The position numbers were made by a program, and so were the translations under genes. The notes beneath the pieces are model-generated. The model did no database searches, was not told the origin of the DNA, and worked only from the letters and a program-made list of their open reading frames with translations. A DNA stretch of 64,000 nt from Phycisphaeraceae bacterium (GTDB lineage: Bacteria; Planctomycetota; Phycisphaerae; Phycisphaerales; Phycisphaeraceae), in contig JBBDPC010000100.1 of NCBI GenBank assembly GCA_040876735.1, forward strand, positions 3,818-67,817. Reading direction: 5' to 3'. How positions within the stretch are numbered: position 1 is the first letter of the stretch; each line of letters opens with the position of its first letter. Below, in pieces: positions 324 through 56,674 of this stretch.

Positions 324-541
324 GGGGTTCGGGATTCGGGATTCGGGGTTCGGGAAAAAACGCCCGAGCCTGAGGAGCGCAGCGACGAAGGGCGGGATGA
401 GGGGGAATGTGTGATGTGTGATGTGTGATCGATGATGTCAGGGAGCGCCAGGCGGTCCCGGTGAACGATCGATTACAGATCATCGATCACAGATTGATCG
501 ATCACCCTGATCCGGGGCTTCGCGGACTCAGCCCTCGGCTT
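324..541 (+). repeat. composite dispersed repeat, copy 1
   Basis: Modules in order: (GGGRTTC)n heptamers, palindrome CGCCCGAGCCTGAGGAGCGCAGCGACGAAGGGCGGG, (GTGTGAT)3, then CCGGGGCTTCGCGGACTCAGCCCTCGGCTT. Near-identical to the reverse complement of 28861-29051. Confidence 0.9.
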
Positions 542-28817: not shown

Positions 28818-28822
28818 GAGGG

Positions 28823-29051
28823 CGGGGTTCGGGGTTCGGGGTTCGGGGTGATTTTATTCAGAAGCCGAGGGCTGAGTCCGCGAAGCCCCGGATGAGGGGG
28901 ATCGATGACCTATAGAATCGCCTGGCGCTCTCTGACATCATCGATCACACATCACACATCACACATCATCCATTCCCCTCATCCCGCCCTTCGTCGCTGC
29001 GCTCCTCAGGAGCGGGCGTTATAAAATCTTCCCGAATCCCGAATCCCGAAT
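28823..29051 (-). repeat. composite dispersed repeat, copy 2 (inverted relative to 324-541)
   Basis: Bounded by (GGGGTTC)3 plus GATTTTAT on the left and ATAAAATC plus (CCCGAAT)3 on the right; contains (ATCACAC)3 and both palindromic modules. Confidence 0.9.
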
Positions 29052-29055
29052 GCCC

Positions 29056-35997: not shown

Positions 35998-36032
35998 CCC
36001 GAACCCCGACTCCCGAACCCCCAATCCCGAAC
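35998..36032 (+). repeat. heptamer array (CCCGAAC-like) directly upstream of ispG
   Basis: CCCGAAC CCCGACT CCCGAAC CCCCAAT CCCGAAC. Confidence 0.7.
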
Positions 36033-50206: not shown

Positions 50207-51547
50207 CTAGCGCGGGGCAAGATCGACCGGCTCGGCCGTCGCCCCCTCGGCCGGCGCGATGCCGAGCAGCCTGGCGACGGTCGGGTGCAGTTGCAACGCC
50301 TCGATGCGCTTGATCTCCCGGCCGCCCAACGGCTCGGGCCAGCGATGGATCAGGGCGAAGCCGAGCATGTCCGGCTCGTCGGCCGGATCGTAGCCGTGCA
50401 TGCCGCGCGGGCCGCCGCGTTCGCCGATGGGCGCGGTCACGCCCTCGGGTCGGACGGAGAAGGTGTGGCCGGTGGTGAGCACTGCCACGAGATCGCCAGT
50501 GCGGGTGGGATGGTCGTACTGCCATTGCTCGGGCAGGTCGTCGCGCCGCCAGATGCGGATGAAGTCGTGCTTGTCGGCGGCGGCGAGGGCGGTGGCGATG
50601 ATCGCTTCGCGTTCGTCGTCGGCTTCGACCCGGTCGAGGTGGATGTGGCCGACGTTGCCGGTGGTGACGAGGGTGATGTCATCGCGATCGCGTGGCAGGC
50701 CGACGAGTGGGTAGAGGTTGACGAGCGTGTGGACGACGGCCATGCCGTGGTCGGTGGTGAGCAGCAGGTAGAGCGTGTCGCCGTCGCGGGCGGTGCGTTG
50801 CCATTGGGCATGGATGGCCTCGGCGAACCAGCCGAGCAACACGTCGGTCTGCTCGAAGGTTTCGACGACTTCGGGCGCGTCGGGGCCGGCTTCATGGCCG
50901 ACCTTGTCCACGTCGCCGATCCAGGTCATCAGCAGTTGCAGCGGTTGCTCGTGCGTGTCGTTTTGCCAGACGTCGATGAGCTGTTCGAGGCGTTCGCGGT
51001 CGCTGAGTTGGGCGTCGAAGCGTTGGTTGTGATGGGCGGTCTGGATGTGGTGGTGCTCCTGCCAGTGGGCCAGGGGCCAGTCGCCCACGGCCGTGCGGAT
51101 CTGCTGGCGGGTGGCGGTGAACCAGATCGGCTCGGCCTGGAGGAGGTTGGCGAAAGGCGGGTAGTGGTAGGTGCGTTGGCGTCGGCGGTCGTAGAAGGCA
51201 TTGGCGGGGACGCCGTGGTCGCGGGGGAGGACGCCGGTGGCCTGGGAGGCGTGGCTGGCGAAGGTGACGGAGGGGAAGGTGGGGACGAGGGCGCGGGTGT
51301 GGAGGCCGGTGGCGATGAGGCGGTCGAGTGCGGGCGTGTTGGCGCGGTGGACGTAGTCGTGGCGGACGCCGTCGATGGTGATCCAGACGACGGTGGTGCG
51401 GTTGGGGGTTTCGGCATCGGCCTCGGCCAAGGCGGGCGTCGCCTGCACGGCCAGCCCCAACAGGAGCACGCACACCAGCCACGGCCTGCGCAGGAGGTCG
51501 TGGTAGGAGTTGAAGGGGCGGGCGTGGTGCGGGCGGGTGGTGGGCAT
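50207..51547 (-). CDS. alkaline phosphatase superfamily, nucleotide pyrophosphatase/phosphodiesterase
   Basis: ITIDG, FPSVTFASH, DKVGH, TDHGM and GMHGYD motifs; signal peptide. Confidence 0.9.
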   Translation of the reverse strand: MPTTRPHHARPFNSYHDLLRRPWLVCVLLLGLAVQATPALAEADAETPNRTTVVWITIDGVRHDYVHRANTPALDRLIATGLHTRALVPTFPSVTFASHASQATGVLPRDHGVPANAFYDRRRQRTYHYPPFANLLQAEPIWFTATRQQIRTAVGDWPLAHWQEHHHIQTAHHNQRFDAQLSDRERLEQLIDVWQNDTHEQPLQLLMTWIGDVDKVGHEAGPDAPEVVETFEQTDVLLGWFAEAIHAQWQRTARDGDTLYLLLTTDHGMAVVHTLVNLYPLVGLPRDRDDITLVTTGNVGHIHLDRVEADDEREAIIATALAAADKHDFIRIWRRDDLPEQWQYDHPTRTGDLVAVLTTGHTFSVRPEGVTAPIGERGGPRGMHGYDPADEPDMLGFALIHRWPEPLGGREIKRIEALQLHPTVARLLGIAPAEGATAEPVDLAPR

Positions 51548-51674
51548 GGTCCTGCATTGTTGCCGGCTACGGCGGTCGGTACAACCGGGGGCCGCGCTCC
51601 GCTGCGATGCGCGGCTAAGGTTTGGGGACGCCCGACTCGCCCGCGCCCGCCCGGCGGGTTACATTGATCCGACG

Positions 51675-54518
51675 ATGAGCGATGCGGCCACGCACAACTC
51701 GAAGCCCGCCAAGGCCCTGACCCCGGCCATGCAGCAGTACCAGCGGTTCAAGAAGCAGCACCCGCATTGCGTGCTCTTTTTCCGCATGGGCGACTTCTAC
51801 GAAATGTTCTACGACGACGCGAAGCTGGCCCACAAGGTGCTCGGCGTCACGCTCACCCAGCGCACCGAAGGCGTGCCCATGGCCGGCGTGCCCTACCACG
51901 CGGTGGAGAACTACCTGCGGCGGATGATCCAGGCGGGCCATCGCGTGGCCGTCTGCGAACAGGTCGAAGAGGCGGCGCAGGCCAAGGGCGTCGTGAAGCG
52001 CGACGTCACCCGCGTCGTCACGCCCGGCACGATCACCGACGAGTCGCTGCTGGAAGAGGGGCAGGAAAATCCGCTCGCGGCAGTCGTCTTCCAGGGGCAA
52101 GGGGCCAAGGGGCCGAGGGGCCAAGCGGCCGAAGGGAAAGAAATCGCCTCCATCGCCTGGGCGGAGCTGAGCACCGGCGCCTTCCACGTCGCCACGCTCG
52201 CTGCCGACGAGGTGGCTGATGAGCTGGCGCGCGTGCGGCCGCGCGAGTTGATCTACTGCGAGACTGCCGACGGCGAAGCGCCCACCCGCGTCCGCCAACT
52301 CGCCGAGGCCCTGGGCTGCTCGCTCACCCCCCGGCCCGGCTGGCAGATGCGCCAGGGCGAGGCCGTGGAAGCCCTCCGCCGACAGTATGGCGTCGCCCAG
52401 CTCGCCGGCTTCGGCTTTGATGATGACGACCCCGCCCTCGCCCCTGCCGGCGGCATCCTGCACTACCTCACGGAAACGCAGTGCGTCGGCGCCGACGATC
52501 CCCACGCGAAAGCCGAAACGCGAAACGCGAAACTCTCCCACCTCCAGCCGCCGCGCCGGTTCGTGCGCAACAGTCACCTGGTCATCGACCAGACGTCGCT
52601 GCGCTCGCTGGAAGTCGAACGCACGCTGCGCAGCGGCGGCACGGAGGGCTCGCTGGTTGCCACCCTGCAGGCCGGCGGCGGCTGCGTCACCGCCATGGGC
52701 AAGCGGATGCTCCGCCACTGGCTCTGCTATCCGCTCTGCGAGCGCGAGCCGATCGAGGGTCGGCAGCGCGTCGTGCAGGCGCTGGTCAACGACGTCCGCT
52801 TTCTTGATGAGCTGCGCGCCGCGCTGGACGGCGTGCAGGACGTGCAGCGCATCACCGCCCGCCTCGCGGTCAACCGCGCCACGCCGCGCGATCTCGTCGC
52901 GCTCGGCCGCAGCGCCGCGCAAGTCCGCCAACTCGAGCGTATGCTCGCCGACCGCCCCACCGTCGCGCATTACCATGAGCCGGTCGCCGCGCTGGTCGCC
53001 CCGCTCGAATCGCTCGCCCGCCAGATCGCCGAGGCCTGCGTCGACGAGCCGCCCGCCCACCTGCGCGACGGCGGCCTGGTCCGCGACGGCTACGACGCCC
53101 AGCTCGACGAATACCGCAACCTTCAGCGCGACAGCCACGACTGGCTGGCCCGCTATCAGAAACAGCTCATCGACACGACCGACCTGCCCGCCCTCAAGGT
53201 CGGCTTCAACAAGGTGTTCGGCTACTACATCGAGCTCACCCGCGCCAACCGCGACAAGGCCCCCGACGACTGGACGCGCAAGCAGACGCTCAAAAATGCC
53301 GAGCGGTTCATCACGCCGGAGCTCAAGGAGTATGAGCAGAAGGTGCTCAGCGCCGAAAGCCGGGGCGTCGCGCGCGAGCAGGCACTGTTCGCCGAGTTGT
53401 GCACGCTCGCTCAACAGCAGACCGCCGGCCTGCACCGCTTCGCCGAGTTGGTCGCCGAGCTGGACGTGCTCGGCTGCTTCGCCCGCCGGGCGGTGCGCCA
53501 TCGCTACGTCAAACCCACCATCGTCGACGACCCCGTACTCCACGTCGACGGCGGCCGACACCCCGTGCTCGATGAACTGCTGGGCGAACAGTTCGTGCCT
53601 AACGATGTGGCGCTCGGGTCTCGGGGCTCGGGGATCGGGTTTCGGGAGGGAGAAGCGAACGCCGAGCCGGATCGCGAACCGCAAGCCACGAAACCCGATA
53701 CCCGAGACCCGAGCCCCGCCGCCACCCTCGCGCTGATCACCGGCCCGAACATGGCGGGCAAGTCCACCTACATCCGGCAGGCCGCACTGATCACCCTCCT
53801 CGCGCACACCGGCAGCTTCGTCCCCGCCGACCGCGCGACCGTCGGCCTCTGCGACCGCATCTTCACCCGCATCGGCGCGTCCGACGAACTGCACGCCGGC
53901 CAGTCCACCTTCATGGTCGAGATGACCGAGACCGCCAACATCTGCCACCATGCCACCGCCCGCAGCCTCGTCATCCTCGACGAGATCGGCCGGGGCACGT
54001 CCACGCTCGACGGCCTCTCGCTCGCCTGGGCCCTGGCGGAACACCTGGCCCACCTCGGCCCGCGATGCCTGTTCGCCACGCATTACCACGAACTGACCGC
54101 CCTGGCCGACGAGTACGACAACGTCGCCAACCTCAACGTCACCGTCCGCGAATGGCAGGACCAGATCGTCTTCCTCCACCGCATCGCGCCCGGCAAGACC
54201 GACCGCAGCTACGGCATCCACGTCGCCAAGATCGCCGGCCTGCCCCAGCCCGTCGTCGACCGCGCCAACCAGTTGCTCGGCCAGCTTGCCGTCAGCCACG
54301 CCCCCGCCCCCGGAACCGCCCCCGGAACAACCCCCGCTCCCGCCCCTTCACATAGCCGGGCGAAGCGCGACCAGTTGCCGCTGTTCACAGAGTACGTCGA
54401 TCACCCCGTCCTCACCGAGCTGCGCCAGGCGGACCTCACCCAGCTCACGCCCATGCAGGCGTTCGACCTGCTCCGCCAACTGCACGAACAGGTGAACCAC
54501 GATCCGCCCGGCGCCTGA
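51675..54518 (+). CDS. mutS: DNA mismatch repair protein MutS
   Basis: TPAMQQY, FRMGDFYEMF, ITGPNMAGKST, STFMVEM, DEIGRGT, FATHY and SYGIHVA motifs. Confidence 0.98.
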   Translation: MSDAATHNSKPAKALTPAMQQYQRFKKQHPHCVLFFRMGDFYEMFYDDAKLAHKVLGVTLTQRTEGVPMAGVPYHAVENYLRRMIQAGHRVAVCEQVEEAAQAKGVVKRDVTRVVTPGTITDESLLEEGQENPLAAVVFQGQGAKGPRGQAAEGKEIASIAWAELSTGAFHVATLAADEVADELARVRPRELIYCETADGEAPTRVRQLAEALGCSLTPRPGWQMRQGEAVEALRRQYGVAQLAGFGFDDDDPALAPAGGILHYLTETQCVGADDPHAKAETRNAKLSHLQPPRRFVRNSHLVIDQTSLRSLEVERTLRSGGTEGSLVATLQAGGGCVTAMGKRMLRHWLCYPLCEREPIEGRQRVVQALVNDVRFLDELRAALDGVQDVQRITARLAVNRATPRDLVALGRSAAQVRQLERMLADRPTVAHYHEPVAALVAPLESLARQIAEACVDEPPAHLRDGGLVRDGYDAQLDEYRNLQRDSHDWLARYQKQLIDTTDLPALKVGFNKVFGYYIELTRANRDKAPDDWTRKQTLKNAERFITPELKEYEQKVLSAESRGVAREQALFAELCTLAQQQTAGLHRFAELVAELDVLGCFARRAVRHRYVKPTIVDDPVLHVDGGRHPVLDELLGEQFVPNDVALGSRGSGIGFREGEANAEPDREPQATKPDTRDPSPAATLALITGPNMAGKSTYIRQAALITLLAHTGSFVPADRATVGLCDRIFTRIGASDELHAGQSTFMVEMTETANICHHATARSLVILDEIGRGTSTLDGLSLAWALAEHLAHLGPRCLFATHYHELTALADEYDNVANLNVTVREWQDQIVFLHRIAPGKTDRSYGIHVAKIAGLPQPVVDRANQLLGQLAVSHAPAPGTAPGTTPAPAPSHSRAKRDQLPLFTEYVDHPVLTELRQADLTQLTPMQAFDLLRQLHEQVNHDPPGA
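53612..53714. repeat. inverted heptamer arrays inserted in frame in mutS
   Basis: GCTCGGGTCTCGGGGCTCGGGGATCGGGTTTCG and CGAAACCCGATACCCGAGACCCGAGC. Confidence 0.85.
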
Positions 54519-54666
54519 ACCGTCCCGCCATCCCCAACAACCCGGCATCCGCCCCATCTGCCGCAAGAGTGAGGCACTCACTTCTTTTAGGATGGGTAAT
54601 ATACGTGAATTAGAGAAATTTTTACCAGCCGCGCGATCCCTTTGAGCCCAGGCCGCGTAAGATTGA

Positions 54667-54886
54667 ATGGAAGCAGAGATCGCCCCCGGCAACCCCCGGA
54701 AGCCCTCCGGTACCCCCGGGCAACAGACCGGGCCGATCGGAGACGTCGGTTATAAAAAGATGGAAACCGGGTCTGCTGCGGCCCTATGATTCGACGGCAA
54801 CGCACGACAGACCCGCCACAAAACTCCTTGTTTGCCCCCCTCACGGCCCGCTCGGTGTCCCCCCCACACCGACGGGCCGGTTTTTT
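54667..54886 (+). ncRNA. candidate small RNA (or a 40-aa ORF) with its own terminator
   Basis: AT-rich upstream region with TAAGAT at 54658; GCAACAGACC/GGTCTGCTGC stem; strong terminator at 54844-54886; no long ORF. Confidence 0.3.
54844..54886 (+). terminator. Rho-independent terminator
   Basis: CGGCCCG(C)TCGGTGT/ACACCGACGGGCCG hairpin followed by TTTTTT. Confidence 0.8.
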
Positions 54887-54934
54887 GCGCGCACCGCACC
54901 GCCTCTTCACGGCGATGGCGAGATGCCGGAAAGT

Positions 54935-55179
54935 CACAAAGGACACGAAGGCACAAAGAGCACGAAGAAGAAGCGGACAACCGCGAAGCGGCGAAGGGTG
55001 CGAAGTGTAGAAGAAGTGGAAGGATGGGAGGAGAGCGGGTGGCGGGATTTTCGCGACACAGCGTTGAAATCGCTTCACATCCGTCCGCACAACTCAACTT
55101 CATCGCCGCGATCTTCGCCTCCGTCGCACCTTCGCGGTTTCTGGATCCCTTTGTGTCCTTCGTGGTTCTCCCGTGGTTC
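54935..55179. repeat. nested inverted 8-9-nt periodic arrays (A-B...B'-A')
   Basis: CACAAAGGACACGAAGG.. pairs with CCTTTGTGTCCTTCGTGG; AACCGCGAAG.. pairs with ..CTTCGCGGTT. Confidence 0.75.
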
Positions 55180-55231
55180 TCCCAGGTCTTGCCATGCAGC
55201 CGAGGGCGAAACGGTCTAAAATGGCTCGTCT

Positions 55232-56674
55232 ATGAGCCGCAGCAGTGATCTAGCGCGTGACTTGAACATCGATGCCGTCATCGCGGGTGACGCCCGGCTG
55301 TCGTTTGACGACGCACTGCGGCTGTACCATGAAGCCCCGCTGCATGAGCTTGGCCGGTGGTCCTCCGCCGTGGCCGACCGGCTGCACGGGACCGAGGTGC
55401 GCACCTACGTCATCGACCGCAACATCAACTACACCAACGTCTGCACCGCCCGCTGCACCTTCTGCGCCTTCAAGCGCCGCGGCGACGAGGCCGACGCCTA
55501 CACGCTCGACCGCGAGACGCTGCACCGCAAGATTTCCGAACTGCTCGCCATCGGCGGCACGCAGATCCTGCTCCAGGGCGGCATGAACCCCGACCTGCCG
55601 CTGACGTTCTATGAAAAAATGTTGCGGGCGATGAAGGCCGAGTTCCCGCGGTTGCACATCCACGGCTTCTCGCCGCCGGAGATCACGGAGCTGGTCGCCA
55701 TCGCCGAGATCGACGGCTACCCCACCACCGCCCCACGGCGCAGCGGCGAGCTGCCGGCCGACGTGTGGGAAGCGAAGTGCGAAGCGATCCTCAAACGGCT
55801 GATGGCGGCGGGGCTGGACTCGCTGCCCGGCGGCGGAGGCGAGATTTTCGCCGACCACGTCCGCCGTCGCACCGGGCAGGGCAAGGCGAGCGCGGAGCAC
55901 TGGCTGACCGTCATGCGGCTCTGCCACAAGCTGGGGCTGCACACGAGCGCGACGATGATGTTCGGCCACATCGAGGGCATCGCCGACCGCATCGACCACA
56001 TGCGCCGCCTCCGCGACGCGCAGGACGAAGCGATCCGCGAGAACTGGCCGGCCCGGTACGTCAGCTTCATCTCCTGGCCCTTCCAGCGCGAGAACACGCC
56101 GCTGGGCCGGCTGCCGGAGTATGACGTAGAAGCGAGCGAACCTTTCCCGGGCGACGTGCTGGCGGAGAAGGTCTACGCCGGCGAAGTGGACGGCATGGCC
56201 AAGGCGGCCTGCGACGCGGCGGTGCCGGAGGCGGGCAAGGTGGTTCGGCTGGCGAGCGCGAACGAGTACCTGCGCATGCAGGCGATCAGCCGGCTGTTCC
56301 TGGACAACTTCCACTCGATCGGCAGCTCGTGGGTGACGATGGGGCCGAAGATCGGGCAGATGGGCCTCTACTTCGGCGCCAGCGACATGGGCAGCGTGAT
56401 GATGGAGGAAAACGTCGTCAGCGCCGCCGGCACGACCTACTGCCTCAACGAAGAAGTGCTCTGCCACCTCATCCGCGACGCGGGCTACACCCCCGCCCAA
56501 CGCGACAACCGCTACAACGTCCTCAAGCTCCACGCCGACGACGACGCCCCCGACCGCAAGGTCACCGACTGGTCGCAGCACCGGGCGAAAAAGCTGCACG
56601 TCGAAAGCAGCAGCGCGTGCGGCAGCGGGGATGCAGATAACGGCCAAGTCACGTTGACCATTGGTGACAAGTAG
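55232..56674 (+). CDS. mqnC: cyclic dehypoxanthine futalosine synthase (radical SAM, CofH/MqnC family)
   Basis: YVIDRNINYTNVCTARCTFC (CxxxCxxC), LLQGG, SLPGGGGEI, ATMMFGH, SWVT and DMGSVMMEENVVSAAG motifs. Confidence 0.85.
   Translation: MSRSSDLARDLNIDAVIAGDARLSFDDALRLYHEAPLHELGRWSSAVADRLHGTEVRTYVIDRNINYTNVCTARCTFCAFKRRGDEADAYTLDRETLHRKISELLAIGGTQILLQGGMNPDLPLTFYEKMLRAMKAEFPRLHIHGFSPPEITELVAIAEIDGYPTTAPRRSGELPADVWEAKCEAILKRLMAAGLDSLPGGGGEIFADHVRRRTGQGKASAEHWLTVMRLCHKLGLHTSATMMFGHIEGIADRIDHMRRLRDAQDEAIRENWPARYVSFISWPFQRENTPLGRLPEYDVEASEPFPGDVLAEKVYAGEVDGMAKAACDAAVPEAGKVVRLASANEYLRMQAISRLFLDNFHSIGSSWVTMGPKIGQMGLYFGASDMGSVMMEENVVSAAGTTYCLNEEVLCHLIRDAGYTPAQRDNRYNVLKLHADDDAPDRKVTDWSQHRAKKLHVESSSACGSGDADNGQVTLTIGDK

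Follow-up and report, generated by a model that had tools for sequence, protein, structure and literature searches.

The mutS gene of this Phycisphaeraceae bacterium carries, in frame and at three sites, tracts of 7- and 8-base units that are probably copies of repeat families found all over its genome, likely cassette arms that lack their gene and are tolerated as passengers in variable loops of MutS. The families are dispersed, often as inverted pairs, and bracket cassette genes at stop/start junctions, and which unit occupies the mutS loops goes with the genome rather than with the gene. That the loops are repeat-derived, as a preliminary description of this DNA had proposed, is borne out, each array being a member of a genome-dispersed family and lying in an indel-tolerant loop.

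Repeat arrays in the mutS gene

The gene (MutS1; 51675..54518, + strand) lies in the window, that is, the whole stretch of 64,000 nucleotides that was analyzed, and encodes an intact protein of 947 residues with all five Pfam domains (MutS I-V). Site 1 (52093..52136, +) is a degenerate octamer array of the unit AGGGGCC[AG], called by TRF at period 8; it is a lone left arm and corresponds to about residues 140-154, at the start of the MutS connector domain. Site 2 (52504..52533, +) is a degenerate heptamer array of the unit ACGCGAA (TRF period 7), a lone right arm corresponding to MutS residues of about 277-286. Site 3 is composed of a left arm of TCGGGNN units (53612..53645, +; TRF period 7 at 53612-53639), a spacer of 39 nt whose sequence contains no cassette gene (53646..53684, +), and a right arm of CCCGANN units (53685..53718, +; TRF period 7 at 53689-53718), and TRF gives opposite orientations for its two heptamer arrays. 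These arms are predicted to pair as an mRNA hairpin of −74.2 kcal/mol (z −6.35, 0 of 200 shuffles); an Rfam scan of 51500-55300 gave no matches at the gathering score. The intact Walker A motif GPNMAGKST (53742..53768, +) starts 8 codons past the site 3 right arm.

The preliminary description had reported three in-frame arrays in mutS, and TRF finds them at the positions it had given, with the peptides listed for them present in the mutS translation. They exceed chance in both types of shuffle: mutS contains four period-7/8 segments, while 299 of 300 synonymous-codon shuffles contain none and the other contains one, and the same counts are obtained when codon order is shuffled (no segment in 299 of 300, one segment in 1 of 300). 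Compared with the shortest family members, the insert measures 18 aa against 4-5 aa at site 1, 17 aa against 5-7 aa at site 2, and 39 aa against 7 aa at site 3. In the alignment to E. coli MutS, query residues 648 and 680 fall on one and the same residue, 604, so that ~31 residues are additional just ahead of the Walker A strand. A shallow alignment of 19 sequences gave an AlphaFold model with low-pLDDT coil at residues 143-152, 273-283, and 650-693, weak evidence given that its confidence is low elsewhere too, including part of the Walker A strand.

A fourth array, absent from the preliminary description, has a period of 12 with a CCCCCGG core and encodes part of the Pro-rich C-terminal linker of MutS (54299..54346, +; TRF), where it keeps the reading frame through its period. 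The core gives 26 strict three-unit matches genome-wide, 15 of them inside called genes, and is shared with a 10-base array located 3′ of mutS at 54683-54724. Further downstream, ahead of the next radical SAM gene (CofH/MqnC-like), lies a large inverted element of 9-base arrays of the CACGAAG type (54930-55185) with no gene called within it. We also noticed an alternative frame of 449 codons that is open over sites 2 and 3 (window 52387-53736), which is probably a by-product of high GC.

Array families across the genome

The genome that is the source of the window (G000) is a sediment metagenome assembly of 4.15 Mb, 88.85% complete, with 66% GC and 3239 called genes. Its period-7 segments number 418 and its period-8 segments 114, whereas a codon-block shuffle has only 3 and 2, respectively. 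Once N and homopolymer runs were removed, 487 arrays were left, with a median of 4.6 copies per array and 7 as the commonest TRF period; 69 inverted pairs were called among them. The majority (367) are intergenic, 49 lie at gene edges, 17 are terminal, and 54 are internal to genes, corresponding to densities of 554 per Mb outside and 21 per Mb inside genes, a difference of about 27-fold. Tract purity does not differ between arrays in genes and arrays outside them (p 0.47). Many heptamer families coexist that differ by just 1-2 bases and drift jointly between congeners.

The scan of all coding sequences for similar arrays, which the preliminary description had called for, places the 54 internal arrays in 34 genes, led by murF with five, mutS and priA with four each, and murE with three; counted within the 34, although unannotated, are GC-rich internal matches on contigs C118 and C53 that are probably not family members. 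When merged, the arrays form 372 sites, of which 37 lie in one open frame and 36 are flanked on both sides by coding sequence of the same strand, interrupted by a stop or a change of frame; the others have a non-coding flank (256), lie at contig ends (31), or fall between genes on opposite strands (12). On inspection by eye, 35 of the 36 interrupted same-strand sites are stop/start junctions and the remaining one is a GC-rich run, and therefore none of the G000 genes shows a visible break at an array. A GC-rich run at C166:23007-23040, which has no relation to the array families, may mark a frameshifted gene.

Three further arrays in the window, at 324, 28823, and 35998, had been linked to site 3 by their TCGGG/CCCGA type, and they are indeed intergenic and of related type. 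They comprise a heptamer array of a related family (324..355; TRF), one at a stop/start junction (28823..28849) that is paired with an inverse arm at 29030-29051, and one just ahead of a start codon (35998..36032; TRF), none of them assigned to a strand. The stretches 280-540 and 28820-29055 of the window are composite elements with nested arms of two heptamer families, which surround two recurring REP-like hairpin sequences and are seen at many other intergenic sites.

Cassettes bracketed by the same units

Eight four-helix-bundle genes (PF05635) and one GxxExxY gene are present in G000, placed where co-oriented genes adjoin. Eight of these nine cassettes have one or more called arms of 7/8-base units, while inspection by eye shows 6-base arms at the ninth; in three further genomes (G001, G010, and G017) one or more 7/8-base arms were called for 14 of 17 cassettes. 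The units of the cassette on contig C26 match mutS site 3, with the same units in the right arm, and the arms of the four-helix-bundle cassette on C127 are related to the site 2 unit. The only two cassettes of the congener G001 match site 1 and sites 2-3 of its own mutS, and G010 and G017 each have one cassette that matches their own mutS site 3, the one in G017 preceding the same downstream gene as the C26 cassette. The mutS elements themselves contain no PF05635/PF13366 gene, given the short site 3 spacer and the lone arms at sites 1 and 2.

In four genomes (G000, G001, G010, and G017) mutS units match arms of the host's own cassettes, one of the points in favor of reading the mutS tracts as passenger cassette arms, the reading we prefer. 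Two points count against it: G000 (88.85% complete) and the 13 loci that were read yielded no cassette armed with the site-1 octamer, and G033 and G038 are rich in cassette genes (9 and 7, respectively) yet have no array in mutS. Among the relatives, mutS arrays occur in 5 of 13 with two or more four-helix-bundle matches and in 0 of 16 with at most one, in a sample whose members are kin and thus not independent. The cassette arms could also simply have been homogenized with local arrays, and the cassettes could either spread the arrays or merely share them.

A few cassettes show features of their own. A four-helix-bundle cassette lies just 5′ of kdsC both in G000 (C75, L073) and in G017 (L225), and the right arm of the C75 cassette is read as the KdsC N-terminus. 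The four-helix-bundle matches on C127 (L074) and C110 (L078) each have a stop codon, which in the C110 match, whose cassette arms are 6-base, comes at the very end. On C171 (L079) a GxxExxY gene with octamer arms follows immediately after the end of lysS, and the G010 four-helix-bundle cassette (L228) follows the apparent counterpart of the gene that comes after this lysS/GxxExxY cassette in G000.

Different units at the same sites in relatives

We read mutS loci in 29 relatives, two of them partial. Sites 1-3 are variable loops across the 29, with period-7/8 arrays in five and none in 24. The expectation that an alignment would reveal three lineage-specific insertions needs qualifying at site 3: the loop there reaches 20-38 aa without periodicity in many relatives, and therefore the additional residues before Walker A, real as they are in comparison to E. 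coli, are not lineage-specific by their length alone.

In the congener G001 arrays are present at all three mutS sites with different units, including a heptamer at site 1. The site-1 family of G000 occurs 22 times in its own genome and not at all in the 2.4 Mb of G001 that was sampled, the G000 site-3 family has 95 copies against none in the same sample, and the G001 site-1 family has 13 copies in G001 and none in G000. A swap from octamer to heptamer between the congeners, as at mutS site 1, is also seen in uvrB, which further argues for the cassette-arm passenger reading. At 34 compared sites, arrays were called in both congeners at 10, in G000 only at 11, and in G001 only at 13. Among the 1101 gene pairs that are reciprocal best hits, 17 host genes were counted in either genome, and seven are shared where 0.26 would be expected, an excess to which ancestry may contribute.

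Within the order, 5 of 151 genomes, belonging to three genera, contain the site-1 octamer, which is absent from the congener. G069 has it at mutS site 1, as a left arm, and at site 3, while G152 has a complete inverted octamer pair at mutS site 1; from these two genomes it follows that site 1 of G000 is likely a leftover left arm. Other genes with the octamer inside their reading frame in these genomes are tgt, valS, aroC, and mfd. Contigs of sister populations from sequencing run X3 seemingly have other units at site 3, since in them 53612 is joined to the site-1 array and 52533 to 53721.

Under the cassette-arm passenger reading, arms would be copied or converted into new places, a few loops would be hit again and again or overwritten, and selection would retain only those versions that are free of stops and have a net length divisible by three. 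Slippage of a unit would then occasionally produce a loss-of-function mutator, as a rare by-product rather than an evolved switch.

Host genes and a possible regulatory role

Arrays lie in frame also in dnaG, lysS, pheS, tilS, murE, murF, kdsB, and waaA, genes that are generally essential, and are thus not confined to genes whose loss can be survived. Annotation covered 44 proteins, namely 32 of the 34 internal hosts and the terminal cases. Among the 34 internal hosts, fifteen have roles in DNA repair/replication or in tRNA/rRNA modification and charging (mutS, mutL, uvrB, recG, priA, dnaG, rarA, miaA, tilS, tgt, queG, mnmE, ksgA, lysS, and pheS), and mutY and smc, which were classed as terminal, likewise have in-frame arrays. 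In the congener G001, of which 2.4 of 4.6 Mb were sampled, 11 of 16 hosts belong to this class, against 4 or 5 genes in a random 100 drawn from 1060 G001 genes; with classes assigned by hand and this congener set as background for both genomes, the bias gives Fisher p values of 5e-7 (G000) and 2e-8 (G001). Low expression was considered as a cause of the bias and is not supported: the hosts resemble other conserved genes in codon bias (p 0.37, with the C118 and C53 matches dropped) and lie slightly above the level of all genes, as far as codon bias, a weak proxy of expression in a 66% GC genome, can indicate.

This preference for DNA and tRNA enzymes is not predicted if the arrays are pure passengers, and together with the lack of any sign of low host expression in the codon-bias proxy it weighs against that reading. 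It would be expected if the arrays were cognate binding or processing sites, through which the four-helix-bundle protein, by recognizing the repeat of its own arms, or a nuclease directed at the mRNA hairpin would tune the output from transcripts of repair, replication, and tRNA enzymes, the insertions being kept by selection. Such a role would also fit the presence of arrays in all of mutS, mutL, and mutY, the return of tgt, valS, mfd, and mutS as hosts in G069 and G152, the seven hosts shared with the congener, and the stable hairpin predicted at site 3. We nevertheless regard it as unlikely, since 24 of the 29 relatives do without a mutS array, only one congener has a called array at 24 of the 34 compared sites, sites 1 and 2 are lone arms with no partner, and the shared hosts may reflect ancestry. 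A bolder version is doubtful as well: mobile four-helix-bundle/GxxExxY cassettes would write their arm repeats into genes of DNA repair, replication, and tRNA maturation, overwriting the same loops with each newly arriving cassette, and the cassette protein would bind the repeats in mRNA, making a transferable post-transcriptional regulon (mutS, mutL, mutY, uvrB, mfd, and recG) that could tune the mutation rate.

Reading frame and the proposed mutator switch

The preliminary description had also noted that gain or loss of a unit would frameshift mutS, and a one-unit change would indeed truncate or garble MutS. It had proposed a possible reversible mutator switch; slipped-strand gain or loss of 7- or 8-base units would then toggle the gene, and precedent exists in the repeat-based switching of mismatch repair in Salmonella, where conversion of mutL and mutS was detected experimentally (available part of PMC2955026). 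The likeness is that small tandem repeats lie inside a mismatch-repair gene; unlike the Salmonella tracts, as far as they are described in that part of PMC2955026, the arrays here are degenerate members of genome-wide families and no conversion was seen.

The one frame break found is in G049 (C27, L257), where mutS is split into two frames inside the site 3 array, at a run of nine G. Either a missing 7-base unit or a single base missing from the G9 run would account for it, and it could be an assembly error rather than a true loss. A frameshift inside the site 3 array speaks for a switch and against the passenger reading, but it is the sole break among the 34 relatives' loci read and falls at the G9 run; 30 more genomes have long open mutS frames with no stops, one of these frames being cut by a contig end. 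In addition, each tract has at most two identical adjacent units, with longest perfect runs of 14-20 nt, and essential genes carry the same arrays. Same-population contigs are gap-free at whichever arrays they span: those of runs X1, which may be the source, and X2 extend over all three sites, those of X3 over site 1, and those of X4 over sites 1 and 2, with the limits that all four runs come from one study and that contigs drop rare variants. In the X3 sister population, which is about 90% identical, there is a net 6-base difference around site 1 that stays in frame. An evolved switch is therefore very improbable.

Finally, local polymerase slippage in the loops, with a preference for 7-8 nt, followed by gene conversion, with cassettes merely sharing the prevailing units, would agree with the many heptamer families that differ by 1-2 bases and drift jointly, and slippage is a proposed origin of the heptamer excess as summarized in the available part of PMC4679880, but it is most improbable here, since the inverted pairs with unique spacers, the octamer-heptamer swaps at identical sites, and the patchy site-1 octamer (five of 151 genomes, three genera, not the congener) all fit the transfer of ready-made arms better.

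Relation to known repeats

The cassette genes of G000 and its relatives belong to the 23S rRNA intervening-sequence family (PF05635/TIGR02436) and to the GxxExxY family (TIGR04256/PF13366), and here lie between inverted arms. PF05635 is the protein family of ORF-bearing intervening sequences of 23S rRNA, which are located in rRNA, whereas the cassettes described here sit at mRNA operon junctions and the mutS elements are gene-less. The Rickettsia palindromic elements share one conserved palindrome consensus and are inserted in frame into surface loops of housekeeping enzymes. The mutS arrays resemble them in lying in frame in loops of housekeeping proteins, and differ in being short tandem arrays in which only the unit is shared and the spacers are unrelated.

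The repeat class itself is already published. Heptameric long SSRs of Xanthomonas (GGGAATC) and Nostoc (GGGGA(C/T)T) have ~4 units and hundreds of dispersed copies, form convergent inverted pairs, and prefer gaps between co-oriented genes near stop/start codons, with a minority in genes; phase variation was judged unlikely, and repeat-associated genes were random over functional classes (PMC4692102, in its available part). Our arrays agree with that part of PMC4692102 in their 7(8)-nt units, ~4 copies, dispersion, bias to junctions, and inverted pairs. In contrast to what it describes, many 7- and 8-base families coexist here and differ between congeners at the same site, the units match cassette arms, and the copies in genes favor DNA and tRNA enzymes. 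G-quadruplex formation is a feature of a subset of the Xanthomonas/Nostoc repeats.

In Geobacter, the Gmet_H4xx sequences are four tandem heptamers in and between genes, several per gene (PMC2700814), and octamer arrays are paired on opposite strands, with insertion into coding genes without a frameshift (PMC2700814 and PMC2996986), according to the available parts of both papers. These arrays are thus similar to ours in lying as heptamers or octamers within genes with the frame kept; they were read there as regulator binding sites, unlike here. The in-gene hosts listed in PMC2700814 are metabolic, its main text makes no mention of mutS, and the term "four helix" is absent. The excess of heptamers in bacteria is reviewed in PMC4679880, to the extent of its available part. 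A literature search that left subscription journals mostly uncovered found no paper that ties four-helix-bundle or GxxExxY genes to repeat arms, and none that reports 7/8-base arrays in mutS loops. What gives the present case its interest is the cassette match, together with the unit swaps and the host bias, and not a mutator switch.

Implications

The loop before Walker A accepts inserts of 30 residues, and may be an occasional breakage point of mutS. If regulation lies behind the preference for DNA-repair and tRNA enzymes, that preference would be important. The match between cassette arms and mutS arrays bears on the excess of 7-base repeats in bacteria and on the function of PF05635 proteins, and, together with the unit swaps between congeners, it names a candidate ligand for each cassette protein.
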